Source of the DNA: Amoebophrya sp. A120
Taxonomy: Eukaryota; Protista; Dinoflagellata
NCBI GenBank assembly: GCA_905178155.1
Contig: CAJINV010000019.1
Coordinates: 750,475 to 814,474 of the forward strand
DNA: 64,000 nucleotides
Direction of reading: 5' to 3'
Shown: piece by piece, positions 1-61,698 of the stretch
How positions within the stretch are numbered: position 1 is the first letter of the stretch
How the letters are laid out: each line of letters opens with the position of its first letter
Notes under the pieces: generated by a model
Database searches by the model: none
The model's input: the letters and a program-made list of their open reading frames with translations, nothing else
What the model was told of the DNA's origin: nothing
Made by a program: the position numbers and the translations under genes

Positions 1-3000
1 GTCGCCCCCGCGACAGCTTTGTCGGCTGCCGTTGAAGTTGTACCAGTTGCACCAGCTTCCGCTTCGGCATTGGAAGCAATTTCCGATGCGAGTGCTACCT
101 GGAAATAAAATAACGATCGCGAGTAGAGCAACAAAAAGCTGCTGCTCGCGCCGAAAAGTACTTGCGCTGGTGCCCCCTGTCGTGCTGCGGTACTCCTAAA
201 ACCTCCTCGGCCGGCGCCTGCATTGCGCATCGCAGCAGGTGCTGCAGCGCAGGCTGGAGGGGCTGGAAATTTTGACGAGCTTCTGTTTAAGTAATGTTCA
301 TCTGTATTCTCATGATGGTAGTGCTGCCTCTTTCTTGGAAAGATCTTCAAATTTACTGTATTCTCATGGTCGTGCTGTGAAATAAGTCGAAGCACCTCCG
401 TGCTTCCTAAGATTTTTTTTTTTCAAATGAAGCGCGATATTTGATTTTCTTTCATTCTCGGTAGCTGCAGTAAAAGAAGTGCTGCAGTGCTCGTCTTCGT
501 CTTTCCTTTTTGTCATTAAGGAGCGTCACAGGCGACGAGCTAGTACTACGAGCGCGGCAAATTCGCTAGCTGGATGCTGTGTTCAAGTCCAGCCCAGGGT
601 AAGTAGGTCTACTATTGAGCATTCACCTCGGCACTTAAGTCTCTCGCTCTTGCACTAAGTGCATTTCACTCTCAGAATGAATAGAAAGCTACCGCTAGGG
701 TGATGCGCAGACGTCTCTCGACAACCAGTATGAGCTTCGTCCATCGTTTATACTCTGAATGCATGGGCTCTACTCGATGGTAGTCATGTACTTGAGCTAT
801 ACGCATGCATGGCACAGAACTTCTGCTTAACCTTATTTATCGACTTCAGCATGCATATCAATCAAGCTGGAGAAACAGCTTTCCCGGAATAATTGACCAT
901 GACTGTGTTGTGGAATAGTGAATCAGGCAGCCGCTTGCATATCCGTCGCTTCTGGAGGAGGCGTTTTCGCAACCCAGGACACGTCTGGCCGTTCTATGTA
1001 CCTAAGGTTTGATGATTTCTGAAAAGTGAGAAAATTTTTTATGAAATCCGACTCCTTCTGGGACGAGTTCGCGTGAGACTACGCGTGGGTTTGAAGCCCC
1101 AACCATCAGATAATGAAAATGGAAAAACTATGAAAAAAGCAGTACGGGGTCGATTTGAAGAGCGGCACCGGTTCTTTGCTGTCCAACGTTTTGTAGATTC
1201 CGATTTCCCTCGTTACCCTATTGACCACCGGCCCGGTAGACTGTCCAAACTGCACGTGCACTTTCATGCTACTCCGGTCTAGTAGGTGTTTGTTGTCGAT
1301 CAAATCGTCGAGTCTCGTTATCGTCGCGTCGAAGAACGCTTTTGCGTCGGGCCACGTGTAACTGTAGTACCGCGCGTCGAGCATGTATCCCATGAAGCCG
1401 TGCATGCCCTGCTGCTCCGGTTTGAAGCCGCCCAGGTAGAGCCGTATCCCACGAAAAAAGTGTTTCACTGTAAGGATTTTGCCAGTTTTGCATCACAAGT
1501 TCACTCTACATGACAGAGAAAATTTGCCATGCGAGGTTCCTAAGCGAAAACACAGCTAAAATCGATTGTCTTTCATGTGTAGCAAGACAAACACTTCGAA
1601 GATACTGATACATGTTTTGCATTACAAGTTTACAGTGAAACAGTTTTTTCCTGCGGTAGGCCGATCCGTCTCCCTATTGGCCACCATCCGCGGGAACAAA
1701 CCCCCGACGTAGACGGAACCCTTGCTGTAGATATCCCGGTTGGCTTCGGATGTGTCCGCGACAATCTTGTTCCCGATGTACCCATATGCAGTGAAAAAAT
1801 ATCGCACGTGCTAATCGCAATCACGCAAGACAAATCTCTTTCCCAAGCTCAATCAGCTTGAAAAACTCCATTTGTCACGCAGAGCTAAATTTGTATTGCA
1901 AGAAAAAGAATTAAGTAGATTGAGTACTAGCACGGGGACGATACTTTTGCCATTCATAACACAACAGCGCGATCGGGGTAAAAGGAGAAGCCGACCAAGG
2001 TCCACTTGTTGTACCGGATCTGGGCGTGGGCTTTCATCTCTATGCAGGCAGATTCGGGGGTAGTCCAGGAGAGGCGAAGTTGTTGGTTCAGAGTCCCCCA
2101 CTCGTGAACGAAAAAGGCCCAGCCGTTGCTGTCCTGGCCGACGCCGCAGCCGGAGTTTTTCGTGGCGGCTATCGTTTTTATCGACTGGGACTCGACCGGA
2201 AGAGACTCGGCCTGTTTGAATTTGCGTTTGACTTTGAGATTGGTTTCTTTATGCATAATGAAGATGCAGTTCTTGTGCGAATTAGAACTACGGGAATAAA
2301 GGTGTCGCCATTTCTGTGCGAAGAAAAACGCCATCGGACCAAAGCAAGTTACTGTCTTAAATATCTCAGCACCGGTATCTCTGGCAGGTATATCCAGGCG
2401 GAGAAGGTCACCGTATCTGCGTCCTGCGCTTTGAACGACAGTGCTTCTTTCCCGGTTGTGAACGTTCCCATACCAAAGGACGACGCATCTGCTTGCTGCC
2501 CAGGGGCGACGGTGACCATGTCGGTACCGCCCGGCTTTGCAGTGGTGCTGAGCGTTGCATCCGTTACGGTCGTGGCAGGAGCTCCTCCCCCTACTGAAGC
2601 CAAAACAACCCCTGCAGGACTGCTAGGAGGTGCTGCGCCACCAACTGGAGTTACCAGCTGCTCTGTCGCAGAGCTATGTGCTGCTGGTACAACCGTTCCT
2701 GCGTCTGGCACGACAGCATTCGCCGCTGTATTACCACCCGGCGCACCACCAGCTCCTTTCGCAACATATTCCGCAGACCCGGCCCAGTAATTGGGTGCAT
2801 TCGTTGGTGCTGGCGTTTTCTCTCCCAAAATATAGTGTCTGTATCCTTGCGTTTCGGGCGCTTCAGGCCCAATTTGCTGTGGTGAGGAAACTGCAGATGA
2901 TGCTGATGAGGTCCCTTCAGAATTGGAAGAGCCGGCACTGCCGCCGAGGAGAGATGTTGTTCTAGGATTATTGTTATTGTTAGCCAAAATCTCGGGCGGG

Positions 3001-3308
3001 GTATCCACCCCGTTTGCACCGCCAGTTCCTCCACCGCCACTGCCCGGTATCCCGCCGGTGTAGGATAAACTCGGCAAGCCAAAGACTTTGACGTCCTTGT
3101 AACTCTCCGCGTCGCGGAGGGTTTGAATCAAAAGGTAGTTGTAGAGGGAGATGGTTAACAGCGCGGAACAGGAGATGAGCAGTATGAACGTCTGGACCAG
3201 AAATTTGAAAGAACATGCGCCTGAATTTGGGCTGTTAAAAATCCCACCATTGAAAGAACCCGGGTTGAGGTCAATCGCGCCCCCCAAAGACGGAAGGTGG
3301 CGCGACAT
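1..3308 (-). CDS. Type II membrane protein with LamG/concanavalin-A-like domain; probable tandem paralog of the neighbouring GH47 gene; probably continues beyond the window start (multi-exon)
   Basis: N-terminal TM (FLVQTFILLISCSALLTISLYNYLLI). LamG-like motifs TVTFSAWIYLP, KWTLVGFSF, RLYLGGF. GT-AG intron 2212-2372 and introners at 1785 and 1445 restore the frame. Segment KWTLVGFSFYPDRAVVYIGNKIVADTSEANR resembles QWVRVGFRMDRHVAIFIEKEIVADTATANR in the neighbouring gene. Confidence 0.6.
1445..1658. mobile_element. Introner, TIR family H1
   Basis: TIR tatcccacgaaaaaagtgtttcactgtaa / ttacagtgaaacagttttttcctgcggta. Flanks agccg/ggccg. Removing element+5 nt joins RETDR to LYLGGF. Confidence 0.85.
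1785..1958. mobile_element. Introner, family B (diverged)
   Basis: Ends tatgcagtgaaaaaatatcgcac / gatacttttgccattcata. Flanks accca/acaca. Removal gives RAVVYIGNK. Confidence 0.75.
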
Positions 3309-4271
3309 GGCTGATGTGCTGGGCAGTGATCGCTGGAGGTAACAATGACGAGCACGACCGTGCCTCTACAGCTTGGGACGTCTGCGGGAAGGTCCTATGT
3401 TCTTGTTGAGACGTGGGCAGCGCCGCGGCCGGCACCTGTTGTAGCTCCTTGTAATATTTTCACCAGAGCACCACGCAGTCGCACGCCGTCACCGCCGCCG
3501 ACAGGTGGCACGTGGCGGACAGATGGCCGAGGTGTGGTGGTTTTCAGTTTCATCGTCTTGTTCCCACGATCGTGAATGGTTCTTGCGATCTTCGCAGCTG
3601 ATCGAAAGATAGACGGTGGCCCTCATGCACACCTGTTGCTGCATCAGCGGCCGGGAAATAACGAGAGCCGTGGCAAACGTAGTCCTAGTTTCACACAAGA
3701 ACGGCACTTGAAGAACGGAGAAGCGCCATGATCCAACCACCTTTACTAGTGCGCAAAGACAAGGCAAAACAGGTGACGGTTACATCTTTCTCGAGAATTT
3801 TCGTTAGTTCGTTTACATTTTGAAAAGTTCGGGCAAAGTAGCCCTGCATGCAGAAATCAGAAAAAAAAACTTACCGATGTTTTTTGGCTGGTAGCGCTTC
3901 TCTCTAGTAATCCTTGTAGGATATTGGAGCAAGTAGAGGATATTTCAAAATTTGCAAAGAAACAACTGTTAGACGTCCAGAATGAGTAGAACTTCTGTGT
4001 CGCAGCAGCAAGAAAAAAATAATGAACCAGATAATCAGAGACGTCTTGCAGCAGCAGTCCCAAAACACAGTCAATATTTGCACGAACAGCACATCAAAAA
4101 TACGAAGGATTTTCTATTGCGCAACCGGTACTACAAGCGAACTCAGCGTCAAATGATTGAAGTTCTTGCGTCGTGGTAAAAAATAGTAGAGCGGCAGCGC
4201 TATTGTCGTCTCTATCATCCCTGACAATGCACGTGCAAGTCCAGCATACGTCTGGACACCAGCTGCTAGTG

Positions 4272-7200
4272 CTATCGCCCCCCAGCACCACCTCCATTAC
4301 CATTTCCCGCAGATGAAGCCGCCACCAGTCCCGGCCGGAACCGCTTTATCGGGTGACCCTCCGTGTTGAAGACGAAGTTTTCCAGGGACAAAATCGACTC
4401 CCCAGCGTCCTTTTGGAAGAGCAAGTACAGGTATTTCAAGGTTTCCGCCGTAAAATAGGATTCCTGTTTGTCCATGATTCTCGGCTTGAAGAACAGATGC
4501 CCAGCTTTCGGATGGTTCTTCTCCGGGTTTTTCCACGTCACCGAACTGTACTATGGGACTCTCAAGCGTTACATTCTCGACTGTTACATGATTTGCCATG
4601 CAAAACTAGCACTATCATCTACACGATCAAGCTGTTCTGCGTGACAAATTCTGGAAGGGCCGAGCAGGCAGATATCTGTCATGCAAGACGCGCAATGCCC
4701 CCCTTTCACTTTTCCCATTCTTGCGTCACAAATCCATGGAACAGTTGAGACTGTAACAGTTGAGAACGCCATATGTACCCGAACTGCGTCTTCGTGTGCA
4801 TCTCGATCGCGCGGAAGATTTCGTAGCCGTACTCCTGAAACTTTTTGTCGCGGGTGTAGTAGTTATGCAATGCAAAAGCATCGCACTAGTATAAATTGCA
4901 TTACAAATTTTCTCAGCATGAGAAATGGAATTTCTAATGCGGATTTAGCTTGAGAAGGAAATTTGTAATGCATGCATGCGATTACTATGAGTACGATACT
5001 TTTGCAATGCATAGTAGTACATGTAGTACAGCGATTCCACCACTTCGGGCCGTAGATGGAACACCTTGTCTTCCTGGTCGCAATACGTTAACTTTTTCTC
5101 GCTCAAATCCCGCTTCAGCCGAAACCTCGTCGCTTCACACGCCAACCCGAAATAGGTCCGCTTGTACATGTTGACGCACGTATCCATTAACTGATAAGCC
5201 GTTTCCACCCAGCCATCGTCCCTTATCGTGACGGGCAGCTCGTAATACCCTAATACCAGCATCCCCGGGACGAAGCAGGACAGGTGTTCCATCCGGTTAA
5301 TTAAATTTCCCGACTTCGCCTCCCTTAAAAAGATGTTGTCGTCGTGGGGCGGAAAGCCCTGGATCAGCATTCGCTGCGACAGACTGTACATAGCGGTGCG
5401 CCACTCTAGGGGGTTATGCATTGCAAAAGTATCGTATGCAGTGGAAATTGCATTACAAAATTTTCAGAAAGAGAAATGATATTTGTCATGCATATTCAGG
5501 TAAGAAACTGGATCTGTGTCTGTCATGCAGTATTGCAATTAGTACGCGTGCGTCGATGCCTTTGCAATGCATACAGGTTTTGCTTCGTGGATTCTAATTC
5601 CGATTTGATCTTCTGCTTCAGTTGCTGTTTCGCCGACTCGGAAAGTTCCTCCGGAAGATTGGTGTTCTGTTGATCCGTTGTTTCTATGCCTTTCTCCTTG
5701 TTCAATTTCTCCCGAATCGCCAAGTGCTCCTTCTGCATTTTAATGTTTTCGATGTTTTTCATGCTGTGCATTCTGTCGTCGGTTATTTTACTCGCAAGGT
5801 TGTCGGATTTCCGGAACTGATTCCTCATTAACTCCTTCTCCTGTTTGTTCGTTCCGCCGAGCAGTTCCGGCGGGTAGGTCTGCGGCGCTTTCTCCCGGGA
5901 CAGGGGCGGGTTGGTTTCGGAGCCGGGTGGCAGGGTCTCCTCCGGGTCTTCGGTTGGAGGGGGTTTATGTGGCACCTTGTTTGTTCCCTGTAGGGGTGCG
6001 GGGGTCTGTGCTTCGGAAGAAGAAGACGCAGGCTCTCTTGCATGATTTTCTTTTTCTTCGACTGCTGGTACTGGTGGTAGTGTGGATGGCGGTTCCGAGG
6101 TCGTTGCTACTTCGGCAAAGCTGCTGGGGGCCGGGTCCTCAGCGGGAATAGGTGGTGGTGCTGGTGCAGATGCTGCGAGAGCCGCGGATGCGGGAGCTAT
6201 AGACGTAGCCGCAGAGGCGACTGCAGGTGGTGCGAGCGCGGCATTGGCTGCGAAAGCAGCTGCTGGCACTGCCGAAGTTGCCGTCGAAAGAGGTAGTGCT
6301 GTTTCCGTGACAGTAGCACTAGTACTAGCTGGTGCGGATTTACTAGCAGGTACAGCTACTTCTGGAGCTGCACTCGTGTCAACTGCAGCACCTGGTACCG
6401 CTGCGGCAAACGTTGTTGCGACCACGACATCTTCTGAAGGAGATGAAGACACACCAGCAGGCACAGCAGGTTCGCCACTACTACCTGCCGGAAGCAACTC
6501 TGCCAACCTTCTTGTTGCTGGCTTCTTGCCCGTATTCTCGTCTATTCTCAACGGCGGAGGTGTTGAACCTGTTGAACCTAAAGCCGTTGGTTTCTCAAGA
6601 GCAGATGGAAATCCATTCACAATTTCCTTCTCCAACCTCCTTACCATTTCATCCCTCCCGATTCCCCAGCCCGCTTCCTTCAGCGGGTCCCTGAATTTCT
6701 CCCGTTTTCGCCCAATGTCCCGTCCCTCCGCGCAGAGTGCATCCCGTTCCGCAGGAGAAAGGGAAGCGATAGCGGTCGCGTTCTTACTACCAGTACTAGC
6801 AGTCGACTTGGTCGTCATTTTCGCAGACGCAGTTGTACCGCTACACCCCTCCCGATAGATGTTGTGCATCCAGAGGTGTGTCTTCAGCAAGTACTCGTAA
6901 AACGAATCCGCACCGGAACCGAAGGAGTAATCCGAGCTGACAATCACGCCCGAACTCGGGTCCACGAAGTTCGGCAACAGCCCGTGCACCTGCCGCATGA
7001 GAACTTTCGGATCTACCAAAAGCATCTGCTGCCGGTCCACCAGCTCCTGGTACCGGGGATTTTTCAACGCGTAGGAGAGAAACCGCCATTCCAACTGCCA
7101 AGTGCCGACTTCAGACAAGACAAAGTGCTGCGTCCACTCGTGGCGTCGGCTTTTCCGCTGTTTCAGATTGATTTCCGGGAGGATCATGATCCCGGAGGTG

Positions 7201-10200
7201 GGGTCGTCGTCAAGGGAGATTTTCTTATTAGAAGATGATCCTGGCTTCTTCCCATTTGCCACTTCAAACATTTTTGACTCGATCATCAGATCTGCGAATT
7301 CCCTGGCTTTGCTAATTAAAATTTGCTTCTGCTCTATCCAGGAAAAAAACTGTGTAAGTGTAAGTTTCTTGCAGGAATAGCATCACAAGTTTCCTCTGCA
7401 TGACACAGAAAACCTGTCATGCGTAGCTAGTACGTGAAAACACGCACGAAAATTGCCTCTGATGCATGTCCAGCATGACAACTGTAAACAGTTTTGCATT
7501 TTCTGCAACACTAATTTACACTTACACAGTTTTTTTCTTGGATATGCTCCCCCGCTTTTTTCAAATTCTCCACGTCGTGCTGTTTCCGTTCGTACCAAGT
7601 GCAAAAGTGTCTGGGTCTGGAAGAATGCAACTTGTGGTGCTGCGTTTGGATTCCAAAAACATTTGTATTGCATGAGTCCCAAAGGGAATGCAGTTTTTGC
7701 TACGCTGAGAAGGCATTTGTCATGCAGAATAGGCATCAAGAAGCCCTCAGAAAATCTGTATTGCTACGGTATGCATCACAGACATCATGGCTCATGCAAA
7801 ACGTGCATGACAAGTGTCAGAATCTTCCAGACCCAGACATTTTTACAGTTGATAGTTCGTTGCTCAATCCCTTCTCCTCGTCAAGCTCCAACAAGCTGTA
7901 CGCCCCTAAGAGCCCGCCAATCACGCGGATGTTGAGTTCAAAAGAACTGACGAAGTTGTCCTTCGCTTCTTCCAAAATGTTCAGCTGCTGAACCCAATTC
8001 TTCACCGCGTCGTCGAATTCTTTCCGCATCCCCATCAACAGCATCGTGTCCAGGGATTCAAACACCATCACCCCGACGCCCGCCCAGTTAAACGGGTTGC
8101 CGGTCAACGGCTGGATTTCGTCATTTCCAAAGGTTTTCTGTTTGTAATTTTGCCACACGAATTATGGGAGTGTCAGGATTGAAATCGTCAAAGTTGAAAT
8201 AATTTGTCATGCATAAAACCGATAACAGTCGGAAGCCCACTTATCAAGCGGCGCATGACAAATTTTCCGAGAACTGGAAATCAATTTGTCATGCTGTTTG
8301 GGGACAGAGGACTGCTTTTGTCATGCTACTTTAGCAGCTCTATCCCAAACCCCAAACAGGCCGACAACCGGCCTCACTTGCAATCCCTGCAACACAGTCA
8401 CTTCGTGCCTTGCATTTTATGCATCACAGATGATTTCAACTTTGTCGATTTCAATCCTGACGTTTCCATACGAAACGCATCGCTTGTTTCACCTCTTCCT
8501 GCCACTTCTCCGGCTCGTGGACACTGATCGGCGCCTTCATATGAAATGCAAAAGTGTCTGGGTCTGGAAGAATGCTGCAACTTGTCATGCTAAATCTGAA
8601 GCATGCAAAAATCTGTGTTGCATGACTACCAAAAGTCGTCCAGTTTTGACCAAGTCGGGAGGGAGTTTCCCATGCAGGATAGGCATGAGAGAGATCGCGC
8701 AGAATCTGTCATTCTAGGTCCTGCATTCCAGACCTCATGGGTCATGGAAAAGCTGCATGACAAGTCGCGCACTCTTCCAGACCCAGACATTTTTACATTT
8801 GATACTTCACCGGGTTCAGCATTTCCTCCGGGACGCCCTTCTCTTTCAGCTTGATTTTCTCCTGCTCCGGGATATCAAAGTAGTTTTTCCGGTTCGGGTC
8901 GAGGTGGATATTCCGGAGCTTTTCGATCGGCGCAACCGTCTCTTCACCGGGAAGGAGGTCTTTCCGCGTGTTGAACTCTTCATCAGCGGTGGGCTGGGGG
9001 CTGGGGTTATAGGATTTTGAAAAAATATGAGATGGACAAATGCACGTGAAGCTAAAAATGCGAAACGCAGTGGTCTCACTGACTTCACTATGACATTGTG
9101 TATGTGCATTACAGAGTGGCAGAGTGGCAAAGCAAGCACGGCGACGATCACACCGGGGAGGCATCAGTGACAATTTTGCCAAGGCATCACGCAACTGAGA
9201 AGAGATACGGACGGGCGCATTTTTTACATGACAAAGAAGAAAAGTGATGCGCACCCGTTCCGAAAATGTTGAAAGTTCAAAAATGAAAGCAAACCCACAC
9301 TGAAATTTCTGAAAGAAAAGGAAAGAAAGAAATTGCTACCCTAACTCAATCCGATGCGAGAAAAAGAGACTTCTTTATAGTGAAACAGCTGCAGGCCGCA
9401 TACTAGTAGGTCTTAGACTTTCTAAGGTTTAGGTCGACGCTCAAGGCCCTAAGAGTAGAACTACTGCGCTAAGAAATAAAGAAGAACGACGGAGCTGCTG
9501 GATTTTTGTTTTTTCCCCCATACTGAGTGGAGCGTGTTCACCCTTGTAGTAATTACAACTTCCGATCGAAAAACAAACTGGGGCCTAAGTACCGGTGTAT
9601 ATTCCTCTTCGCATGCGCTTCCCGCATCAAAGCTGCGTTGTGCTGCGCCAACTCCCCAAGCACCGCGTCTTGCATCTCGTGCTCGTATTTGAACGCACCA
9701 TTTTCCGGCTTTTGCTTCTTCTCCGCCGAGATCCGCTCTTCGGAGATCCCGTGCTTTTTCTGTCCGTTCAGCAAATCTTCCGACTCCAACTCATCTTTCA
9801 CTACACCATTCAACCCGTTCGCCGGCACCACCCCGAACGGATCGCTGTTCTCCGCTGTCTTCGGTGGAAAAGTCCGAATATCCTTCAAGTTCACCGGCTT
9901 CCGGTTCTTCGAGCCCTCGAAATAGTTGTCCATCGCCGGGGCGGGGGTCGTCGTCACTCGTTTGTTGAAGGACAAAGTTCCGTCGTGGTTTTTGCTGAGC
10001 GCTTTGTAGCTTTTCTCGAACTGGTCGTGGTCCCGGAAAAGGTTCGCCATGTTCTTCTCGATCGCGTGCTTTGGCTTGAACGATTTGGACTTTTGTTTGT
10101 CCTTTTGTCTTTTACCCAATTCTAGGAGAATCTTCTTGATCAAGATCTGCATGTTTTCCTGCGCGGACTTCGGCTGTTGAGAAGCTGCTCCGAATAAAGC

Positions 10201-12742
10201 GTTCTCGTGGTGCGAGTGCAAAGGGTCGTGGTCGCCCAGTGACTGGTCTGCTCCACCTTGTTCAGCGGCCGTTGGGTAGTAGCTGCTGTCCTGTTCTCGT
10301 GGCCGGTAACTATCGTCCAGCCTGACATTGACGTATTTCTGCAAGACCAACTGATCCCTGGTCGTTACTTCCTGCCCTTTCGTCAAGGGGCTCGCACCCC
10401 CCACCCCGCGCGTGAACTCCAACGGCTGCGCGACTTCGAAGAGTTCGACTTGGTCAACATCTGATTTAAACGCGATGTTTTTCAAAACGCCCTTCTCTAA
10501 CCGCACTACCTCCTTGTCGTAGACGGAAATGGTGAAATCTGCGATAAACCCCAAAAAGAACGAGCCCCCGAGCCTGCTCCCGCCGATGTAAGTCCCTCGC
10601 CCGAGATGCCGCGTCGCCATGTCGGACAGGAGTTTCTGGCTGTTTTTGGGTTTGATCGGTCTTTTGAACCGGTTCTCGACGAAGATTTTACCCCGATTCG
10701 CGGTCGCAGTGTCCGCGACGATCTCTTTCTCGATGAAAATCGCGACGTGTCGGTCCATTCTGAACCCAACCCGAACCCACTGGTCCAGCGGTAACGCGAA
10801 CGAGCTTGCGAGCTCCGTGCAGGCCGACCTTTGCGTGGACCAGTTGAGAAAGAGACGGACCTCCGGCGGATCGAGAGGTGGAGCGGATCCGGATATTGGT
10901 GGGGTAGAATATGCTGGAATTGAATCGCCGCCAGTGCCACCTTGTGAGGACGTCGAAGTTACTTTCGGTTGCGGATCGTGGCCCTCCCGTTTCCCATCAT
11001 CCGTGTGGTCTTTCTGATACTCGTCCCGTATCCGCTGCGCGGTCCGCTCTCGGTCCGCCGCCGTCGCGTAGTATTACCGTGAAAAATGCCCCCACCCCCA
11101 AAGTTGGAATAATTTGTGATGCGAAGTTTCCAAGTGAAGACTTTTTGTCATGCATGAAAGGAATATGAATCTTTGTGATGCAGAGTCTAGGCGTATATAG
11201 CGTTGCTAGCTTGCATGACAAGCGCCGCGCTTGCTGGGATCTGTCGCAATACAAATCTTCGCTATTCACGATAACCAATCTGTGATGCTGCTAGATGCAA
11301 GAGGGCGAGTGTTTCTGTTGGAAAGGTTTGCAATACAAATGCCCCCAAGTTCGGGGGTGGGGGCGTTTTTCATTGTGATACGTAGCCGCGGAGATTTTTG
11401 CTCCGCGTCGCGACCGACTGCAGCTCGTCGGAGGGGCGCGCAGGTGGATCGTTGTTATCATTTTGATGGCCATGTAAGGAAGCTGATGAAGATGACTTCG
11501 AGGACGGCGCTCTCGTATGATCTTGCCGGTTTTTGTTTCGACTGCTGTTGGCGTACTGTTTGTCTGTTGTACTCTTGCTCCTGCTTTTCTTCTCCCCGCC
11601 GCGGACAAGCACGCTTGCTTTGGATGAGTCCTCTGTGTCCTCTTCCCCCAGAAGTTGTCGCCTTCCGTTCCTTCCCCCACTTTGCACATGGTCGCGCAAC
11701 CGTATTACCTTCCCGCGTTCATGGGAGTAGATGCCGAAAAACCAGCCCGGCCGCTTTTCGTGGTCGCTGCCGCGGGTGCAGGATCCGAGCTTGTTGCTCG
11801 CGATCGGCATGCCCTTGGAGAGCAAATCCAGGCCGATTTTGCTGTTCAGCAGCTCCGAGCTCACGTAAATGTATGCGCCCACCTTCAGATCCGCGCCGTC
11901 GTAGGTTTTCGTGGAGAAAATGTAGTTATCTCCGTAGTATCATGTGCAAAAGTATCGTACTCGTAGCAATTGCAAATATGCATCTTCTTCCTAAGGTAGA
12001 ACAGCATTACAAATTTTATTTCTCATGCTGAGGAAATTTGAATTTGTGATGCAGTTTGTGCTAGAGCTAGTGCGACTGCGATGTTGCTTTTGCATTGCAT
12101 ACGTAGAAAGCGAACGTTTCCGCTTGAAGGTTCAAGGTTTGCAGAAACTCCCCGCGTGCGTGGTTGTTTTCGTAGCCAGCGGTGGGAACGAGGGTGAGAG
12201 CATGTGACGGATCAACACTGCTTCCTGAGCCGGATCCACTATGTCGTCCCCCTGGCAGAAGTCCGTAGAAAGTCTCATAGTCATCCGAGTTGATGTTCTT
12301 GGAATTTGTGGTCCCGCCTTTTAATGCACCACTTCTGCCTCCCCCTCCTCCCGCTGCTCCGCCTGCTAGTACCTCGTCGGCTCCTCCTTCGCCAGACGTG
12401 GCTTCCAAATGGTCCAAATTGATCAAGTTGCTGCCATCGGACAGCTCCCCCGCGGTGCGCCACAGGTCCAAAAGGTAGTAGGCCCAGAGTGTCACCACAC
12501 AGCTCACTATGAACTGCAAAAGCATCGTATTCGTATAAATGCATTACAAATTTGCTCAGCATGAGAACTAAATAAATTTGTAATGCTGATTAACGTTAAG
12601 AAAAATATTTGTAACGCAAGACTTGCATTTATACGAGTACGATACTTTTGCACAGGATACACACCACGGCGGCGTAGGTGGTGCGCATGGTACGCCAGGG
12701 CTGGCGCAGGATGGCGCCAAGAGTATCCAGGAGAACCTTCAT
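4272..12742 (-). CDS. Glycoside hydrolase family 47 alpha-1,2-mannosidase with N-terminal TM anchor, LamG-like domain and a large low-complexity insertion (multi-exon, 10 introners)
   Basis: GH47 motifs: VKQAMRFVWQNYK, FGNDEIQP, FESLDTMLLMG, FELNIRVIGGLLGAY, SEVGTWQLEW, GSGADSFYEYLLK, EHLSCFVPG, LRPEVVESLYY, ESYFTAETLKYLYLLF, NTEGHP. Start (MKVLLDTL) inferred. Confidence 0.9.
4552..4773. mobile_element. Introner, family C
   Basis: TIR tatgggactctcaagcgttacattctcgactgtt / aacagttgagactgtaacagttgagaacgccata. Perfect 5-bp DR tgtac. Removal gives KTQFGYSSVTW. Confidence 0.9.
4864..5013. mobile_element. Introner, family B
   Basis: TIR tatgcaatgcaaaagcatcgcact / agtacgatacttttgcaatgcata. DR gtagt. 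Removal gives LYYMYYYTRDKKFQEYGYEIF (GH47 helix). Confidence 0.92.
5415..5573. mobile_element. Introner, family B
   Basis: TIR tatgcattgcaaaagtatcg / cgatgcctttgcaatgcata. Flanks ggggt/caggt. Element+5 removal joins ORF 5523-7286 to ORF 4945-5421 in frame. Confidence 0.85.
7335..7544. mobile_element. Introner, family H2
   Basis: TIR tatccaggaaaaaaactgtgtaagtgtaa / ttacacttacacagttttttttcttggata. DR tgctc. Removal gives KKAGEQKQILISKAREFAD. Confidence 0.9.
7593..7854. mobile_element. Introner, family A
   Basis: TIR taccaagtgcaaaagtgtctgggtctggaag / cttccagacccagacatttttacagttgata. DR gttcg. Confidence 0.92.
8163..8470. mobile_element. Introner, family D
   Basis: TIR tatgggagtgtcaggattgaaatcgtcaaagttgaaat / atttcaactttgtcgatttcaatcctgacgtttccata. 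Flanks cgaat/cgaaa. Removal gives VKQAMRFVWQNYK. Confidence 0.92.
8540..8804. mobile_element. Introner, family A
   Basis: TIR tatgaaatgcaaaagtgtctgggtctggaag / cttccagacccagacatttttacatttgata. DR cttca. Interior closely similar to the copy at 20068. Confidence 0.92.
11072..11380. mobile_element. Introner, family F
   Basis: TIR tattaccgtgaaaaatgcccccaccccc / gggggtgggggcgtttttcattgtgata. DR cgtag. 314-nt removal puts ORF 11370-11882 in frame with ORF 9553-10758. Confidence 0.9.
11938..12101. mobile_element. Introner, family B (reverse orientation)
   Basis: Ends tatcatgtgcaaaagtatcgtactcgta / gcttttgcattgcata. DR cgtag. Removal gives ETFAFYGDNYIF. Confidence 0.88.
12508..12659. mobile_element. 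Introner, family B
   Basis: TIR tatgaactgcaaaagcatcgtattcgtataaatgca / tgcatttatacgagtacgatacttttgcacaggata. Flanks ctcac/cacac. Lies within the TM-coding segment. Confidence 0.88.
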
Positions 12743-45800: not shown

Positions 45801-46153
45801 TATGGCGTTCTCAACTGTTACATTCTCAGCTGTTACATGAATTTGCCATGCAAAATTGCAATAGGCCTCCACTTAATCAAGGTGCTTAGCATGACAAATT
45901 GTCGAAAGGCTAAACAGCATGATAATCTGTGGCCAATCTGTGATGCGAAAGCTGCAATGTTGCAACTTTCACTTTTGCTGTTCTTGCATTACAAGTCCAT
46001 GCAACAGTTGAGAGTGTAACGTTTGAGAACGCCATATTGCCGTGTCCGACGCAACGACAAGCTGCACACGGGCCGCGGATCGTGCTGGTTTCTCTGTTGT
46101 GTCGCCTCAACACACGACAAAGACTTTTTCCGCCCTGCTGGTGCCGCCCACAT
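33872..46153 (-). CDS. Very large lineage-specific protein (or 2-3 tandem paralogs): hydrophobic N-terminus, degenerate histidine-phosphatase-like domain, three copies of an uncharacterised helical domain
   Basis: ORFs 42453-45569, 40832-41581, 37916-39316, 37192-37821, 36042-36493 and 33872-34831 share ordered motifs (see findings). Introners at 45801, 45454, 37810 and 36254 restore frames. Other joins unverified. Confidence 0.6.
34794..35122. mobile_element. Decayed family A introner
   Basis: Ends tatcctgtgcaaatacgtctggg / cccagacatacaacttgcagtagata. Direct repeat no longer recognisable. Confidence 0.55.
35170..35466. mobile_element. Decayed family A-like introner
   Basis: Ends tatgcattgcaaatat / atatttgcaattgata. 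Interior diverged, no clear DR. Confidence 0.45.
36254..36430. mobile_element. Decayed family B introner
   Basis: Ends tattctgtgcaaaagtat / atactttggcattgcata. Flanks cagga/cgtaa. Element+5 removal joins ORF 36221-36493 to 36042-36302 and matches the paralogous domain. Confidence 0.7.
37810..38000. mobile_element. Introner, family B
   Basis: Ends tatcctctgcaaaagtatcgt / acgatacttttgcaatgcata. Flanks ccctg/tcccg. 196-nt removal joins ORF 37916-39316 to 37192-37821 in frame. Confidence 0.85.
45454..45716. mobile_element. Introner, family A
   Basis: TIR tatgaaatgcaaaagtgtttgggtctggaagaa / ttcttccagacccagacatttttgcaatccata. DR cggtg. Confidence 0.92.
45801..46036. mobile_element. Introner, family C
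   Basis: TIR tatggcgttctcaactgttacattctcagctgtt / aacagttgagagtgtaacgtttgagaacgccata. Flanks ttgac/ttgcc. Confidence 0.9.
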
Positions 46154-47251: not shown

Positions 47252-50156
47252 CTAGTACAAGTTTAGCTTCGTGCACATTGCCACCCGCACGGATTGGTCG
47301 AGGGAGGCGAAGACGCACAGCCCTTCCTTGTTCAAATGCCAATCGAAGCTCACGATTATGCATTGCAAAAATGTCTGGGTCTCGAAGACTGTCATGCTAG
47401 ACCTAATCGACACACAGATTTGTATTGCGTGATCAGCAAAATAAGCTTTCACTTTTGGGCAGCCGAAGCCGAAGGCAACATTTCTCATGCGCAATAAGCA
47501 TCGAGGAGCCCCCTGCAGCTCAAAACAAAAACTTGTGATGCTAGCGCCCGCATTCCAAACCGAAGCCTTGAAGACCTTGACCTTCTGAGTAATGCGAACC
47601 CTGCATGACAAACCTTACATCTTGTTCCAGACCGAGACAGATTTGCACTGGATAGCGATCGGTTGTGTGCAAAGCTCCTTTTGATTCAACGTCTCGACGG
47701 TTCCGGCGACACCCTTTTCGAGCCCGTCGTTCACTTCGACCTGATATTTGTTTATTCGTAGAGGCTTGTTGCATGATAAGGACAACAAGCACCAGCACAA
47801 GAACTGCAACACAAATTCTACTTTTACCTTTTGTTTTTCTTTTTAACCATGCCGAAAGTAAAGAGCCTACCCTGCACGACCAGAACCAATCTTTCGTACC
47901 TTCCGTTCCGCTGGGTACACGTACTTGTGGAGTGTGATGCTTCCGTTTCCCCCCACCGTTGCAAACAGCTCTCGGTTTTGCGGCAGGAAGTGACACCCCC
48001 AGACCGTCGACTTGGTCACTTTTTGCGTCCTCCCCGCGAAGCCCTCTTCGGGGTGGTAGGTCCTCAGATCGTACACAATCATGTTGGACTCCAGCGTGGA
48101 CACCGCGAGCTTGTTCATCAGAATGTCTTTTCGATCAAACTGGATGTGGCAAACTCCGTTCTTTACGTTGGTGTCCCATCTGAGGTGTTAGTTGTTTTGG
48201 AGGCGATTTCGGATTTTTAATTTCATACTTTTTCAATTCATTATTTCCAAGACATCGAATGGACGACTTTTTGCTTGGCAGGAAGAAAAGCAGACTTCTG
48301 CCATTGTCACCAGCAAACCGCTGCATGTGATTCCTTCGCACGCAACCATTGCATCAAGGCCAAGGCCTCTTGATGAGGTTAGTATTCAGATAGCGAATAA
48401 GAACATCAGCATTACCTCAACATGTTTGTCCTGAGATCGAACATTTTGATGTCTCCGTTGTCGTAGCCCGCGCATATTACCCGCTCAGAATCGTTGTAGC
48501 TATTGCCGAAGGCGACGGTCCAGCAATCTGCGGGTATCTCGCCGTCCACCGGCTCCAGGGACAGCACCTTGCATTTCGGTATTTCATTTTTGAAAATGTA
48601 CAGTCTTTACCTTTGGCTACTTTGCGTTTGCTTCATTACGCAAGAAAGGCGAAGCACAAGCATGACAGTTTTATGGGACTACATACAGTCTCAGTCACCG
48701 TATCCACAATTAAAATTCGAATCTTTTACCGGATCCTGCTGTCTGGGGTCCCACACCCGCACCGTGCCGTCTCTTTCCTATCCTTGCAGAAGCTTGAGTC
48801 TGGCAAGAGCCACAGATCTTGAAATTTCAAATTTTCGTGCAGTGCAGCTGCAGGTGCAGCTAGCATTTCCATCCATGCAAAATAAAAAAAAGCGGATGTG
48901 GACCAATTATGCAAGTGACTGCACGACCTGCACTTCGTCATGTCTGTGAGAATTTTGGCAGTCTGACTCTACGAAACGACCATTTTCGCTGCGACTCAAG
49001 AGTTTCCGAGAAGTATTGATCCGGTCACGAGCTCTGGTGCGCCGCCACCGATACCCAGGCCCCCGCACCTGAGAGTTAGTTTGATGCCTTGCGACGTCGT
49101 GTTTCTTATTCTTGCAGCTGCCCTACGATATGAATGTGGTCTAGTCATTTTGTTCAGGCGTTTTTTCGTTCCCATATCAAGTTCATCTTCCGCTGCTGTG
49201 CCACCTGACACTGTTCTGTTCAGGTACGAAACACATTCTACTACGCTTACTCTCATCATGAAACAATTTGCTTCTAATAGAAATCCTTGTACCCTTCCAC
49301 GCAATTTATGATTTTATCGTGCCCCCGGACCTCGAAGATCGGTTTTCTTATGTCCTCGAGGTCCCATATTGCCAAATTCCCCTCGTAGTCCCCGGTCGCC
49401 AAATGTCTCTGCTCAATCGCCGAGGCGCCGAACGTACCGCACTTGAAGCCCTTTGGCTTCTCGGTTTCGGAAAGCTTCTTGACCTGGTGTTGCAATAAAG
49501 TACTGAATGTAGCACCATCAGGTCATCATTGTATTCATGGTCCACATTCTTGACGACTCCTCGTCCTCGTCCGGCTTCTCTCTCAATTTGAAACTCTAAT
49601 CTGCGCATCTAGGAATGGTTCGTCACGAAGAGGATGCATATCATCAATCAGATCCACCGTACAATTACAGTTAGACAGGACCAAAAATAGCTGCCTAACT
49701 ACTCCAGGTCCAGCAAACAACGACAGTAAACACCATGCAGTATAAAAATACCTTCCCCCTCTCTAGTTCGTAGACCGCCAAAGCGCCGGTCGCCCTTGGA
49801 TTCTGGCCGAGCACCACAAACCTTGCGGAGTGCGGGACCCACTTCGCCTCGAAGGGGTATGGCGTTCTCAAACGTTACACTCTCAGCTGTTACATGATTT
49901 GTCATGCAAAATGACCATGACCTGCCAGACGATGAAGCTGCTGCGCATGACAAATTATCGGAGGGCTAAACAGCACTATAATCCGCACGAAACCTGTAAT
50001 GCAAGACGCGCAAGGCTCTCCCTCTCACCTGTGCTAGTCTTGCATTACAAATTCATGTAACAGTTGAGAATGTAACACTTGAGAACGCCATAAGGGGGTG
50101 AAGTTCAGGCCTTCGTGCGTGTGCAGGATGATCTGCGGCGAGTTCGTGGTGTCCAT
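47252..50156 (-). CDS. WDR92: WD40 protein WDR92/DNAAF10 (axonemal dynein assembly, R2TP-associated), multi-exon
   Basis: PQIILH...[61 protein letters not shown]...[32 protein letters not shown]...TKLNLY match the WDR92 family. Confidence 0.93.
47357..47654. mobile_element. Introner, family A
   Basis: Ends tatgcattgcaaaaatgtctgggtct / agaccgagacagatttgcactggata. Flanks acgat/gcgat. Removal gives CTQPI(A/V)SFDW. Confidence 0.88.
49858..50092. mobile_element. Introner, family C
   Basis: TIR tatggcgttctcaaacgttacactctcagctgttacatga / tcatgtaacagttgagaatgtaacacttgagaacgccata. DR agggg. Removal gives LNFTPFEAKW. Confidence 0.93.
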
Positions 50157-52007: not shown

Positions 52008-52190
52008 AAACAGAAGGAATTGATGCTAAAACAGAAGGAATTGACGCTAAAACAGAAGGAATTGATGCTAAAACAGAAGGAATTGATGCTAAAGCAGAAG
52101 GATTTGATGCTAAAGCAGAAGGATTTGATGCCAAAGCAGAAGGATTTGATGCTAAAACGGAAAGATTTGAAGCAAAAACAGAAGGACTTG
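52008..52190 (+). repeat. 21-bp tandem repeat (aaacagaaggaattgatgcta), about 8 copies
   Basis: Direct reading; translates as (KQKELML)n in ORF 51930-52469. Confidence 0.9.
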
Positions 52191-52514
52191 GGCCAGGAGC
52201 TGCTCGCTCTGGTATCAATCCAGCGGACTTTTCTCCTTTGCAAGGAGAAAAGTCCGGACTTTTCTCCTTTGATCCATATCAAAGGAGAAAAGTCGTCTGA
52301 TCCATATCAAAGGAGAAAAGTCCGACATCGCGGACCCTCTGATCCATATCAAAGGAGAAACCGCGATACTTATGACAGGCCCTATCCCACCCAGACCCTA
52401 GCCACCGAGCTCGTCTCCGCTCTGTTTCGCAGTGGAGATCAGAAGGAGCTTGCTTCCAGTACGTGTTGACGCGGAGATCAGCGGCCGGCTCCTAAGGAAG
52501 AGATTTCCTATAAC

Positions 52515-52746
52515 GCGGAAAGCCCAGGGGCGAGCGATTTCCTAAAAGAAATTATGCGGAAAGCCCAGGAGAAGGCATTTCCCAAAGGAAATCACGCGGA
52601 AAACCCAGGAGAAGGGATTTCCCAAAGGAAATCACGCGGAAAGCCCAGGAGAAGGGATTTCCCAAAGGAAATCATGCGGAAAGCCCAGGAGAAGGGATTT
52701 CCCAAAGGAAATCATGCGAAAAGCCCAGGAGAAAGGATTTCCCAAA
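52515..52746 (+). repeat. 40-bp tandem repeat (gcggaaagcccaggagaagggatttcccaaaggaaatcac), about 5-6 copies
   Basis: Head-to-tail units with no spacers. Confidence 0.9.
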
Positions 52747-55388: not shown

Positions 55389-57134
55389 CTAGCTGCGAGT
55401 AGATCGATGTTGTTCTACTACCGTACCAACCACATAGACATACCTGATAATCATGTCCCCGTGGTCTTTCGCCATCAGCCTTCCTTCCCTCAGTCCCCGC
55501 CTCCTACTCTCCGCGTTCACCTTTGTTACCGCCGCCGCTTTCTTGGGCATGCCCCAGCCCGGTATTCTGCGCTTGAAGGAAAGCTGCAGGGCGTCGATTT
55601 CCAGCTCGGCAAGACTGTTATCCAGCATCTTAATCTGCATATGAACTGCAAAAGTAACGTCCTAGTATGAATAGCATCACAAATTCCCCCAGCATTTTTA
55701 GAAATGGAATTTGTAATGCTGTTTTACATATAGGAAGAAGATTTGTCATGCATGTTTGCAATTAATAGTACGAGTACGATGTTCATGTTGCCTTTGCAGT
55801 TCATACTGCAGCGGTTTGGAAGAGCCGCTAGAGGACCGCGTGCCCAGCAGCCATTCGGAAACAGAAACCGTGCACAGGTAGTAGACATCGTGCTCGTTCT
55901 GCAGCTCGAATCGCGCGTGATCCTTCTGCGTGATCAGATACACGGTTTTCGGCCGGGCAGAGGAGGCCGCTGCATTGTCGTCGTTCGCAAGCGACTGCGC
56001 GGCGAGCTTCGTGCCCGGCTTAGTGGCCTTGGGGATCGAGATCGTAGAGGCCTGAGAGTGTGTCGTGTTTTGTACATTTCAACATCATCCTCCCGAATGA
56101 CAACGAGCAAAGAACTACAAACAAAGGTAGCACTTAGAGTTACAACTGCCACGTAAAAGATCGCTGCAGTAGATTCCCGCGGCGCGACGTCGACCAGCAG
56201 CACTCTTCTAGTTCTAGGTCGACGATGCATGCACGACAGCAAGATGGAAAAGCAAGGTGGTTCAGGTTCTTCGACGTGGCATAGCAATAGCTGTCAAACA
56301 AACGCAAACTATAAGTACCCCTGCCCTGGTCTCGACCCGTTTCTCGCACCCGGTGTAGAGCTCTTCGAGGGTGCAGGCAACTTTGTAGGTTGCTTGTCTA
56401 TCCCGGCTCTGCTGCTGCGGAAAGCCGAACGCATTTCCGCCGAAGAGCGCGGCGAAGGGATCCACGGCACCGCCGCCGCCCATATTTCCGCCGCCACCTC
56501 CCATCGGGCCGCCAAAGGAGAAGTGTATACCTGGTATAGCATTTTCTCAGCATGATCTTCACGGCCGCACTCAATCATGTCGAGAGAACGTGATCTTGTT
56601 CATACAATCTAAATTTTCACGCTCACCTGCAGAGCGGCGTACTAAAATTATCTTCTTGCCCTCTCCTCCGCACGTAGTGCTCAAGTCTACAAAACAGTTA
56701 CCTCCCGCCCCGCCTGGGCCGCCTCCCATAGTGAATCGCATGCCCCCACCGCCGGGCCCGCCCATGCCGCCGAGGTCGAAATTTTGGCCGAAAAAAGCCC
56801 GGAAAATCTCGTTGGGGTCGATGTCGTGGCCTCCGTGGAAGCCGCCGCCCGGCCCGCCGCCGCCGCCACCCGAGGACATGCGCTTCCAGGCGTCTATGCC
56901 AAGCTGGTCGTACTGTTTTCGCTTCGCCTCATCGGACAGTACTTCGTAGGCCTCCGCCACCTGTTTGAACTTGGCCGTGGCTTGCTCCTGGTTGTCCGGA
57001 TTTTTGTCTGGGTGCCATTTTATCGCCAGTTTTCGGTAGGCCTTCTTGATCTCGTCTGCGGAAGCTTGTTTTGGGACTTCCAGGATGTCGTAGAAGTCCT
57101 GCGAAGATGAAGACGAACTGGAGGAGGAGGACAT
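55389..57134 (-). CDS. DnaJ/Hsp40 class B co-chaperone (multi-exon)
   Basis: J domain ([27 protein letters not shown]), G/F-rich linker, [27 protein letters not shown]. Confidence 0.92.
55640..55805. mobile_element. Introner, family B
   Basis: Ends tatgaactgcaaaag / cctttgcagttcata. DR ctgca. Removal gives SSKPLQIKMLD. Confidence 0.88.
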
Positions 57135-59592: not shown

Positions 59593-61698
59593 TTACTTCT
59601 TCATCTTCATCAGGCTCTTCATGATTTTCCCGGTGTGGGCGGTGATCAGCTTGGCCTCCTTGTTCTTGCCCGGGCCTCCAAGCGCCGCGGCCTTGAACTC
59701 GGACAGACTGAGCGTACCGTCCTTGTTCACGTCGGCCTTCTTGAAGATCGCCTTCAGGTAGTCGATCTCGGACTTTCCCAGCGCCTTCATTGTCTTCATG
59801 CTGGTCATCTTGTCCGCGATCTCCTTCAGCATCTGCGGCTTCGGCGCCACGGGAGCTGGAGCGGCGGCCATCATCTTAGATTTCATCTTCATCGGGGTCG
59901 GGGCGGCGTATCGCAAGGAAAAATCCCCCCTCCCCATATCGCAACGAAATCTCTGATGCTGGATTTGCGTAGACAAATCAGATCTGTCTTGCAGAAAGTG
60001 CTTGGCGGTATTTTCTAAGCCTGCTCGTTGGGTATAATGCAGAAGGCGAGCAATTGTGCATGGCAAACAGGTTTGCAGTAGTCGAATGCGCATGACGGAC
60101 TTGCTCTGGAAAAATGCGTCAAATAGCTCCCCTTGCATTATATGCATGACAAAGGTGACTTGTGGCCACAAATCAGCATCACAAATATCCGCTTTGATAT
60201 GGGGAGGGGGGATTCTTCATTTTGATACGGCCATCATCTTCATCATCGGCGTCGCCTTCATCACCGGGGCGGGCTTCGGCGCTGCCGCCTTCATCATCTT
60301 CATCATCTTCGCTTTCATCGGGGCCGGCTTCGGGGCGGGAGCCATCTTCTTCATCATCATCTTCATCTTCATCGGCTTCGGCGGGGGAGCGACAACCATC
60401 TATCCACTGCAAATATGTCTGGGTCTGGAAGGTTGGAACTTGGGATGCTAGCTTTCCATACCTCGGAAATCTGTATTGCATAACGAACAAAAGTCGCAGC
60501 CTCTTTTGTACAAGGAAGCAAGCAGCACGCAGTTTCTCATGCGGATTGCCCATGAGAAAGCGTTCTGGAAAGTTGTCATGCTAGATTGCATTCGGAACTG
60601 TTTCCATCATCCACATTTTAGCATCACAAGTTTCCAGACCCAGACATATTTGCATTTGATACCATCGGGGCAGCCATCATCTTCATGGTCATTTTCATCG
60701 GAGTAGGTTTCGGGGCAACCATCATTGCCTTCTTCATCTTCATGGTCATCTGAAGGTGTTTTTTGTACTAGTTGTGTACCGTGGATGTCGAAGTTGATGT
60801 TGATGTGCATGACGAAATCGCATCACAAATTTGGTCAGCATGACGAAATGGAATTTGTAATGCGGATTTTCCTTAAGAGAGAGATTTGTAATGCATGGCT
60901 GCAATCGAAGTATTATCTATACCTTCATGGGCTTCTTCATTTTCATGGCCATGGCCATCTTCTTGCGCATGGGCGGCTTGTAGGGAGCCAGCGCCGCGAA
61001 GGCCGCCTTCTCGTCAATCATTTTGGGAGCCGCCGCCATCATCTTCATCGGACTCGGTGCCTTCACCATCACCGGAGACTTGGCCTTCATCGGGGTCGCA
61101 GCCATCATTTTCATCTTCATCGGCTTGGGAGTGGCCATCTTCATCTTCATCGGGGGCCGGTAGGCCGGGAGAGCAGCGAACGCAGCAGCCTCGTCGATCT
61201 CCGAAAGCTCGTCCTGGTGTTAAGGTTTGGATTTTCAACATTCCGCTATCTAAAATGCTGGTCTTGGATCTACTTTGCATGAGGTATATTGTGTTGCAGA
61301 ACAACAATCTAGACTTCTTTTCTCTTTCTGTAAATGCAAATGCACGTCTCCTTGTCCTAGTCCTGTCACGCGCTATCGATTGAACCATTATGTGAAGATC
61401 AAGGTGAACAAACCAAAATCAATACCACAAACTCAATATCTACCGGCTCGTCCGCAATGGAACGGCGGGGAGAGGGGGACTTCCTGGGCGACTTCATCGG
61501 CGACTTGGACTTGGCCATGGGCTTGCGCAGCGACGGCAGGGCCGGCATCTTCGGCAGCTTCGGGAGGCGCACATACTTGGAGAGGCGGAACTTCAGCCAC
61601 GTCTTCTTCGGGACGTACTCCACCGGCTCTTGCGCCTCGTCCGGGTAGACCAAGTTGAAGGTCATGTCGTAGCACCCAAGCTCGTATTTGTCGAACAT
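59593..61698 (-). CDS. Met/Lys/Pro/Ala-rich basic repeat protein with C-terminal EF-hand
   Basis: Exons joined via GT-AG introns 61214-61443 and 60750-60922 and introners 60401 and 59909. PMKMKMM repeats. EF-hand IFKKADVNKDGTLSLSEF. Confidence 0.8.
59909..60227. mobile_element. Introner, family E
   Basis: TIR tatcgcaaggaaaaatcccccctccccatatc / gatatggggaggggggattcttcattttgata. Flanks cggcg/cggcc. Confidence 0.9.
60401..60661. mobile_element. Introner, family A
   Basis: TIR tatccactgcaaatatgtctgggtctggaa / ttccagacccagacatatttgcatttgata. DR ccatc. Interior similar to 19761-20006. Confidence 0.92.
60750..60922 (-). other. Canonical GT-AG intron containing a family B introner core
   Basis: Donor AAG|gtatag and acceptor ttcag|ATG keep the frame. 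Interior aligns by eye with 4898-4972. Confidence 0.7.

Follow-up and report, generated by a model that had tools for sequence, protein, structure and literature searches.

Introner elements of Amoebophrya sp. A120 appear to be cut from transcripts at one fixed register set by their terminal TA bases

The window analysed here, a 64-kb stretch of contig CAJINV010000019.1 from the dinoflagellate Amoebophrya sp. A120, holds protein-coding genes interrupted by elements that read TA...TA, carry inverted ends and are flanked by a 5-bp direct repeat. Three proteins named for A120 (WDR92 and proteins of 643 and 2,298 amino acids) map onto it letter for letter, with exons 100% identical. As the host proteins are those of A120 and the ends and repeats are as Farhat et al. 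(2021, PMC7789003) describe, the elements are the introners already published for this organism, a link that the initial annotation had also made. The system is therefore known. What is apparently unpublished, and well supported, is a rule for where the cuts fall; the mechanism that we outline for it is a proposal only. The three annotated genes lie as follows, and Pfam matches to GH47 and Gtr1_RagA were found in window genes.

33136..46153, minus strand, host gene P0130 (2,298 amino acids), 11 introns, none GT-AG
23442..27814, minus strand, host gene P0127 (643 amino acids), 8 GT-AG and 4 element-type introns
47255..50156, minus strand, WDR92 gene (P0007), 5 GT-AG and 3 element-type introns

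A strict scan, which asked of each TA...TA segment that 18 or more of its 25 terminal bases be complementary, returned 27 distinct outer elements in the window and no match in the control, three dinucleotide shuffles. Looser scans added five, for a total of 32 TA...TA inverted-repeat elements of 149-323 bp that sort into about 8-9 groups by terminal sequence. Nine further decayed copies of up to 1,585 bp came from the mapping of annotated proteins, not from the inverted-repeat scan. The elements of the initial annotation (at least 29, of 149-323 bp, in about 8 families) thus proved real, but it had missed the decayed copies and left the cut position open. An Rfam search of the window gave no match. 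In the list below, repeat is the number of matches between the two flanking 5-mers, k is the number of upstream repeat bases kept in mRNA, which is informative only where the 5-bp repeat is imperfect, and z is the score of the predicted fold.

1445..1658, minus, element; repeat 4/5; homologue residue L requires k≤4
1785..1958, minus, 150-bp-group element; repeat 4/5; homologues weakly favour V over G, k≥3
4552..4773, minus, element in GH47 gene; repeat 5/5
4864..5013, minus, 150-bp-group element in GH47 gene; repeat 5/5
5415..5573, minus, 150-bp-group element in GH47 gene; repeat 3/5; RNA-like contig piece begins at 5575, giving k=4 exactly
7335..7544, minus, element in GH47 gene; repeat 5/5; contig piece ends at 7329
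7593..7854, minus, 260-bp-group element in GH47 gene; repeat 5/5
8163..8470, minus, element in GH47 gene; repeat 4/5
8540..8804, minus, 260-bp-group element in GH47 gene; repeat 5/5
11072..11380, minus, element; repeat 5/5; contig joins 11066 to 11381
11938..12101, minus, 150-bp-group element; repeat 5/5; contig piece ends at 11932
12508..12659, minus, 150-bp-group element; repeat 4/5
15037..15185, minus, 150-bp-group element; repeat 4/5; contig piece ends at 15032, giving k≤4
17677..17928, minus, 260-bp-group element; repeat 5/5; removal by length sum within one contig
17998..18146, minus, 150-bp-group element; repeat 5/5; removal by length sum in the contig shared with 17677
19761..20006, minus, element in RagA gene; repeat 5/5
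20068..20336, minus, element in RagA gene; repeat 4/5; conserved Ile requires k≥4
20976..21298, minus, element in RagA gene; repeat 5/5
21348..21626, minus, element in RagA gene (at WDCGG/Q); repeat 4/5
25790..26017, minus, decayed element; repeat 3/5; z -0.15; terminal TA kept
26293..26614, minus, weakly paired element; repeat 3/5; z -1.5; RNA joint of 327 nt in 4/4 runs, k=3 or 4
27014..27277, minus, element; repeat 5/5; RNA joint of 269 nt
27333..27652, minus, element; repeat 5/5; RNA joint of 325 nt
33213..33934, minus, decayed long element (intron of 727 nt); repeat 3/5; k≥4
34794..35122, minus, decayed element; repeat 0/5; k=3 or 4
35170..35466, minus, decayed element; repeat 1/5; k≤4
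35493..36064, minus, decayed element (intron of 577 nt); right end ACA, not ATA; sole exception to the full rule
36254..36430, minus, 150-bp-group element; repeat 2/5; k≥4
36516..37265, minus, decayed long element (intron of 755 nt); repeat 0/5; k=3 or 4
36840..37107, strand not assigned, nested element within the 755-nt intron, near the region of its 3' half; intronic, not coding
37810..38000, minus, 150-bp-group element; repeat 3/5; k 2-4
39341..40925, minus, decayed long element (intron of 1,590 nt); repeat 1/5; k≤4
41513..42459, minus, decayed long element (intron of 952 nt); repeat 2/5; k≤4
45454..45716, minus, 260-bp-group element; repeat 5/5
45801..46036, minus, element; repeat 4/5
47357..47654, minus, element in WDR92; repeat 4/5; Val requires k≤4
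48779..49015, minus, decayed element in WDR92; repeat 2/5; z -0.59; k≥3
49858..50092, minus, element in WDR92; repeat 5/5
55640..55805, minus, 150-bp-group element; repeat 5/5
59909..60227, minus, element; repeat 4/5
60401..60661, minus, 260-bp-group element; repeat 5/5

The flanking 5-mer is identical on both sides in 17 of the 32 window elements, which agrees with the earlier claim of a 5-bp repeat perfect in over half, and a GT-AG pair, excluded earlier for the elements at 4552 and 7593, is possible at none of the 32 in any register across the 5-mer (GC-AG is possible at two and AT-AC at two). A metagenome scan with the two ends of one family gave 135 loci (L001-L135, all JACKZZ01 contigs, up to 3.9 kb) with 258 elements, among which young copies are over-represented because the loci were chosen by intact ends. 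Here the direct repeat is strictly 5 bp, being perfect at width 5 in 202 elements and at widths 3, 4, 6, 7 and 8 in 6, 4, 1, 1 and 1. With 17 unusable elements set aside, 241 were frame-tested, and deletion of the element plus 5 nt gave a coding-like frame at 122 of 241 junctions (+4, 17; +6, 24). Of these 241, 127 had no usable strand call, leaving 114 strand-called elements; GT-AG occurs at k=4 in 6 of the 114. A window hint that repeat mismatches cluster at position 5 (7/20) was not borne out by the loci (9, 5, 3, 6 and 5 at the five positions).

The orientation of the elements relative to the transcript is random within families (21/16, 10/9, 9/8, 6/4 and 6/3). They share an internal word, TTGTVATGC, with 62 copies in the 7.4 kb of elements and 5 in the remaining 56.6 kb; the two strands carry it equally often, and most copies stand 30-45 bp from an element end. 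The claim that all elements lie in coding sequence holds generally, except for 36840-37107 inside its older intron. The claim that none is intergenic agrees in part with a self-BLAST, which found no family sequence in long gene-free-looking stretches, but 39500-42400, intergenic by eye, proved to be exon and introns.

Removal from transcripts was followed in runs X1-X4, which represent one sample and consist of assembled contigs that we guessed to be RNA, a guess supported by their loss of GT-AG introns. One contig in each of the four runs skips 327, 269 and 325 nt at the three elements covered, in every case the element plus 5 nt, and these contigs also skip a 168-nt GT-AG intron. At the 11072 element a contig of run X1 skips 314 nt (309 + 5), and another contig lacks 788 nt, the sum of two elements with 5 nt each (257 and 154) and two GT-AG introns of 202 and 175. 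We looked for retention of the elements or use of nearby GT-AG sites in transcripts, and the contigs drop the element plus 5 nt with no GT-AG there. In the DNA-like run X5 one long piece of a contig (1700-4587) still includes an element. The matches of raw-read runs X8 and X9 were mainly to element cores, leaving host genes uncovered and giving no junctions. The raw RNA reads of X8 match the element core at 8579-8629 (90-95%) but not the host exons, which indicates that a related organism transcribes a similar element.

The coding sequences tell the same length. In the GH47 gene, cutting out the element plus 5 nt at seven elements gives one frame of 1,150 codons, which +3, +4 and +6 break; the same deletion restores RagA (by Pfam) and WDR92 letter for letter. 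The initial annotation was thus right that the removed length is element plus 5, that its deletion restores coding in GH47, RagA and WDR92 and that removal coexists with GT-AG splicing in the same genes.

Imperfect repeats place the cut. From the RNA-like contigs, k is 4 at 5415, at most 4 at 15037 and 3 or 4 at 26293. In the annotated A120 proteins, eight introns require k≤4 (those of 952, 1,590 and 755 nt and those at 37810, 35170, 34794, 47357 and 26293) and two require k≥4 (36254 and the 727-nt intron); k=4 is the only value inside every allowed set. Among homologues, the Ile of human RagA requires k≥4 at 20068, and 1445 requires k≤4. We are confident that the cut is fixed, one base before the left-end TA and four bases after the right-end TA. 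With k fixed at 4, the intron consists of the element with a single target base before it and four after it, or N + TA(Y)...(A)TA + NNNN. Table S4 of Farhat et al. lists nine top A120 motifs that are all NT-NN, as this register predicts, and nine top A25 motifs that are all TT-NN (PMC7789003). Literature searches, mostly of open-access papers, found none stating this register or code; Figs 3 and S19-S25 of Farhat et al. may already display part of it.

Two observations touch on the position of the cut. In the metagenome loci, 63 of the 114 strand-called elements have their k=4 cut between codons, while the two remaining phases account for 24 and 27 (p 4e-6), an excess not clearly seen in the window, where automatic frames are partly wrong. 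Codon preference was tried as a guide to the retained repeat copy and gave too weak a signal.

The introns of the three annotated proteins indicate what is recognised. They number 31, of which 13 are GT-AG and 18 are not. All 18 non-GT-AG introns carry T at +2, A at +3, A at -7 and A at -5; 17 have T at -6, and 17 fit the full rule, which a random interval with five allowed cuts meets 0.75% of the time. The exception (35493..36064) ends ACA yet retains both adenosines. The decayed introns have 0-3 matches in the 5-bp repeat, terminal complementarity of 7-15 of 25 in the eight scored, and 0-1 copies of the internal word, and two of them (25790 and 48779) fold no better than shuffles. In old copies the terminal TA bases thus outlive the duplication, the greater part of the stem and the internal word. 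Since they are retained while the other features are lost, the terminal TA ends are likely the splice signals, and since the ends are inverted and the signals therefore symmetrical, either orientation is tolerated.

The canonical introns share part of this pattern. All 13 canonical donors read GTA, with T or C at +4 in 10 and G at +5 in only 4, so that T+2 A+3 is common to 18/18 element-type and 13/13 canonical introns. In the canonical WDR92 introns with acceptors at 49069 and 48180, CTAAC stands only 6-7 bases before the 3' end, suggesting a short branch-to-acceptor distance. Two other candidates were rejected: the internal word as a splice signal, which decayed introns lack (seven of eight) or hold once and which is also missing from 26293, an intron confirmed by RNA, and an association of the +1 and -1 bases (p 0.002), which is confounded as both bases are neighbours in the exon.

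The initial annotation had proposed one machinery for all families. The single cut register across families, orientations and ages speaks for it; the machinery itself we can only infer. We lean towards the host's own relaxed spliceosome, which likely removes the elements with terminal TA(Y)/(A)TA in place of GT/AG. The NTA(Y) donors share their register with the canonical GTA(Y) donors, A120 is reported to have U2, U4, U5 and U6 small nuclear RNAs (snRNAs) with U1 undetected (PMC7789003), and there are precedents. In the tunicate Fritillaria the spliceosome removes non-GT-AG transposon introns (bioRxiv 10.1101/2025.08.15.670264; PMC11282704), and in Stentor the proposed branch adenosine lies six bases before the 3' end (PMC9505925).

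In this proposal, a cut-and-paste transposase encoded elsewhere would place non-autonomous copies, in either orientation, into targets cut with a 5-bp stagger, and would probably bind the shared word TTGTVATGC. In the tested cases bases 1-4 of the joined site in the mRNA come from the upstream repeat copy and base 5 from the downstream one, which rebuilds the target unchanged, so that any exonic site is tolerated. To judge from what old copies retain, the signals would be +2U, +3A and +4Y at the left and -7A, -6U and -5A at the right. The inverted ends would supply both in either orientation, and the inner stem, which probably brings the ends together, could erode. U6 would read N-UAY in the register of canonical GUA(Y) donors, the adenosine at -7 or -5 would serve as branch point, and the 3' cut would be set by distance.

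A bolder form of the proposal, which we hold tentatively, is that A120 uses a second, unreported code, N/UAY...AUA-NNNN/, on most of its introns. A U1-less spliceosome would do without both terminal dinucleotides, the left end serving as donor and a right-end adenosine 4-6 bases from the cut as branch. Non-canonical introns are reported to exceed 60% of all A120 introns (PMC7789003). If this is true, any transposon of the superfamily would make a perfect intron at any site and in either orientation, even after its repeats decay.

Several points weigh against the spliceosomal reading and the register beneath it. The evidence comes from contigs and annotated proteins, and the lariat, branch point and snRNA pairing are predictions, to which the invariant adenosines at -7 and -5 are no more than a lead. 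By their ends the elements do not qualify as U2-type introns, which carry GT-AG or GC-AG. The +1 base is free (G in 12/32 in the window and 35/114 in the loci), G at -1 is no commoner where +1 is G (13 of 47 such cases), and AG at repeat positions 3-4 is enriched in the loci (17/114, p 0.001), where acceptor AG totals 18/114, yet found in 0/32 in the window. An adenosine at -5 or -7 departs from yUnAy, the usual branch motif. Transposon ends could match canonical donors at TA by coincidence, and stem mismatches of the G-U and A-C kinds are balanced between the strands (143 vs 153), so that they do not speak for selection on RNA pairing. As to removal, the evidence is assembled contigs of one sample; the 2,298-amino-acid gene is uncovered in the X1-X4 contigs where examined (33826-38250, within an uncovered stretch of 31806-38250), so that for its junctions we rely on an annotation possibly built on data from the same runs. 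The RNA register covers one transcription direction only, every tested gene being on the minus strand, and the Table S4 motifs may partly reflect aligner preference (PMC7789003).

The same elements and register could also be handled by a non-spliceosomal endonuclease and ligase, perhaps of transposase origin. It would take its distances from the terminal TA pair in a stem that runs from end to end, as has been proposed for euglenids; we consider this possible, though doubtful. Such a cutter would need no G, AG or pyrimidine tract and would suit the symmetrical signals. Young copies are predicted to form strong end-to-end stems (z -2.6 to -12.9 in 28 of 32), the predicted folds of two decayed copies retain pairing between the end regions, and Euglena is described as using paired motifs at fixed spacers (PMC12501133) and releasing circles (PMC11282704). 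It fits less well that the element code coincides with canonical donors at +2 to +4, that the GT-AG intron at 60752 begins GTAT and contains the core of an element, and that the weakly folding 26293 is still removed exactly. No enzyme candidate for it was found.

Improbable in our judgement is a dedicated second spliceosome, kept apart from the GT-AG introns and built on diverged U6, U5 or Prp8 or on U2AF paralogues, or left as a minor-spliceosome-like remnant. U12-type donors read RTATCCT, and the similar NTATCCT stands at 3 of 32 window donors; most donors are unlike U12, and the elements do not qualify as U12-type introns. A duplicated U2AF is reported to serve the non-canonical introns of Fritillaria (bioRxiv 10.1101/2025.08.15.670264), but in A120 Table S6 gives U2AF65, U2AF35 and PRP8 as single genes, and U11, U12, U4atac and U6atac are reported as not found (PMC7789003).

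The absence of any fixed site, with a sliding join guided by the 5-bp repeat, template switches of reverse transcriptase or excision at the DNA level, is largely refuted: perfect repeats do conceal the cut in 17/32 copies, and repeat mismatches at third codon positions (19/28 in the loci, p 0.016; 27/48 pooled with the window, p 0.10) could mean that both repeat copies are sometimes used, but the same register holds for introns whose repeats match at 0/5 or 1/5, conserved proteins require removal, and DNA-like X5 keeps an element. Gene conversion from empty alleles, or a degree of slippage, may account for the third-position mismatches in L001-L135.

An origin by cut-and-paste transposition is likely, to judge from the inverted ends, the strict 5-bp duplication, the random orientation, the one nested copy and the metagenome copies, which are up to 96% identical to window elements. 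TTGTVATGC would suit a putative transposase site. No transposase-sized frame was found in long copies among the 135 loci (three candidates, longest stop-free stretch 151 amino acids), and stop-free stretches in the long decayed introns reach at most 194 amino acids. One end pattern sought in viral and prokaryote contigs gave no match. Two longer TA...TA copies, L017:1799-2255 (457 bp) and L034:1800-2430 (631 bp), have perfect 5-bp repeats and no long frame. By analogy, a Ginger-like integrase or a hAT5-type transposase would be candidate enzymes.

The descriptions of A120 introners differ from ours in what they fix. Farhat et al. report, for the same organism, inverted repeats of TAT + 7 variable bases + AAA with GT-AG introns alongside, as here, and direct repeats at the junction. 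Their repeats are 3-5 nt and their splice sites, with no clear signature, are called variable or unknown (PMC7789003), whereas in our data every family has a 5-bp repeat, the cut appears fixed and TA outlasts both the inverted and the direct repeats. Gozashti et al. (2025, PMC12130899) describe the A120 families as DNA elements of 105-350 bp with terminal inverted repeats (TIRs). Their fam38, given as '5-bp TSD, TA/TA termini' (TSD, target-site duplication) and Ginger-like with integrase-like open reading frames, shares both features with the window elements, a comparison by description only, and lacks the expected Ginger termini. The other A120 families among 40 of the 58 rows of supplementary file 8 are classed as 'Unknown'; their duplications, called automatically, are 2-6 bp or absent and their splice sites are of mixed origin, whereas all families seen here have one architecture.

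Other lineages offer partial parallels. Euglenid nonconventional introns are likewise TIR/TSD-derived and non-GT-AG, with fixed spacers from paired terminal motifs and coexisting GT-AG introns (PMC12501133; PMC11282704), but their code N3CDG...CH'G N5-6/R differs in motif and spacers from N1 TAY...ATA N4, which has no purine rule at the exon start (exon +1 is a purine in 63 of 114 loci elements). In Fritillaria borealis transposon ends also act as splice sites, there for a modified U2-type spliceosome, but terminal dinucleotides are fixed (AG-AC, AG-AT), whereas here both terminal positions are target-derived and free (bioRxiv 10.1101/2025.08.15.670264; PMC11282704). Described hAT5 (PMC12730594) and Ginger-like integrase transposons resemble the elements in a 5-bp duplication, short bipartite inverted ends and a repeated subterminal word; the 5-bp target duplication and terminal inverted repeats of hAT5 miniature inverted-repeat transposable elements are both present here.

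A single code that outlasts hairpin and duplication makes their removal from transcripts directly testable. It would let gene finders model the non-canonical introns of A120, and it would show how far a spliceosome can depart from GT-AG while serving ordinary introns in the same genes.

Some features of the surrounding sequence deserve mention. All genes examined in the window lie on the minus strand, in agreement with the unidirectional gene clusters reported for Amoebophrya. Four introns of the P0130 gene (727-1,590 nt) resemble intergenic DNA by eye. At 1140-12760 three adjacent genes share parts of a GH47 plus lectin-like protein of relatives, which suggests a tandem paralogue cluster. The stretch 51900-54900 is element-free, with a GC-rich skewed core, tandem arrays (21-bp x 8.8 and 40-bp x 5.8), palindromes and related short repeats near both ends. 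At 60752-60921 (minus strand), with boundaries drawn from sequence only, an apparent GT-AG intron starts GTATAG and carries the internal core of the 150-bp group with no matching right end; it may be an element turned canonical.

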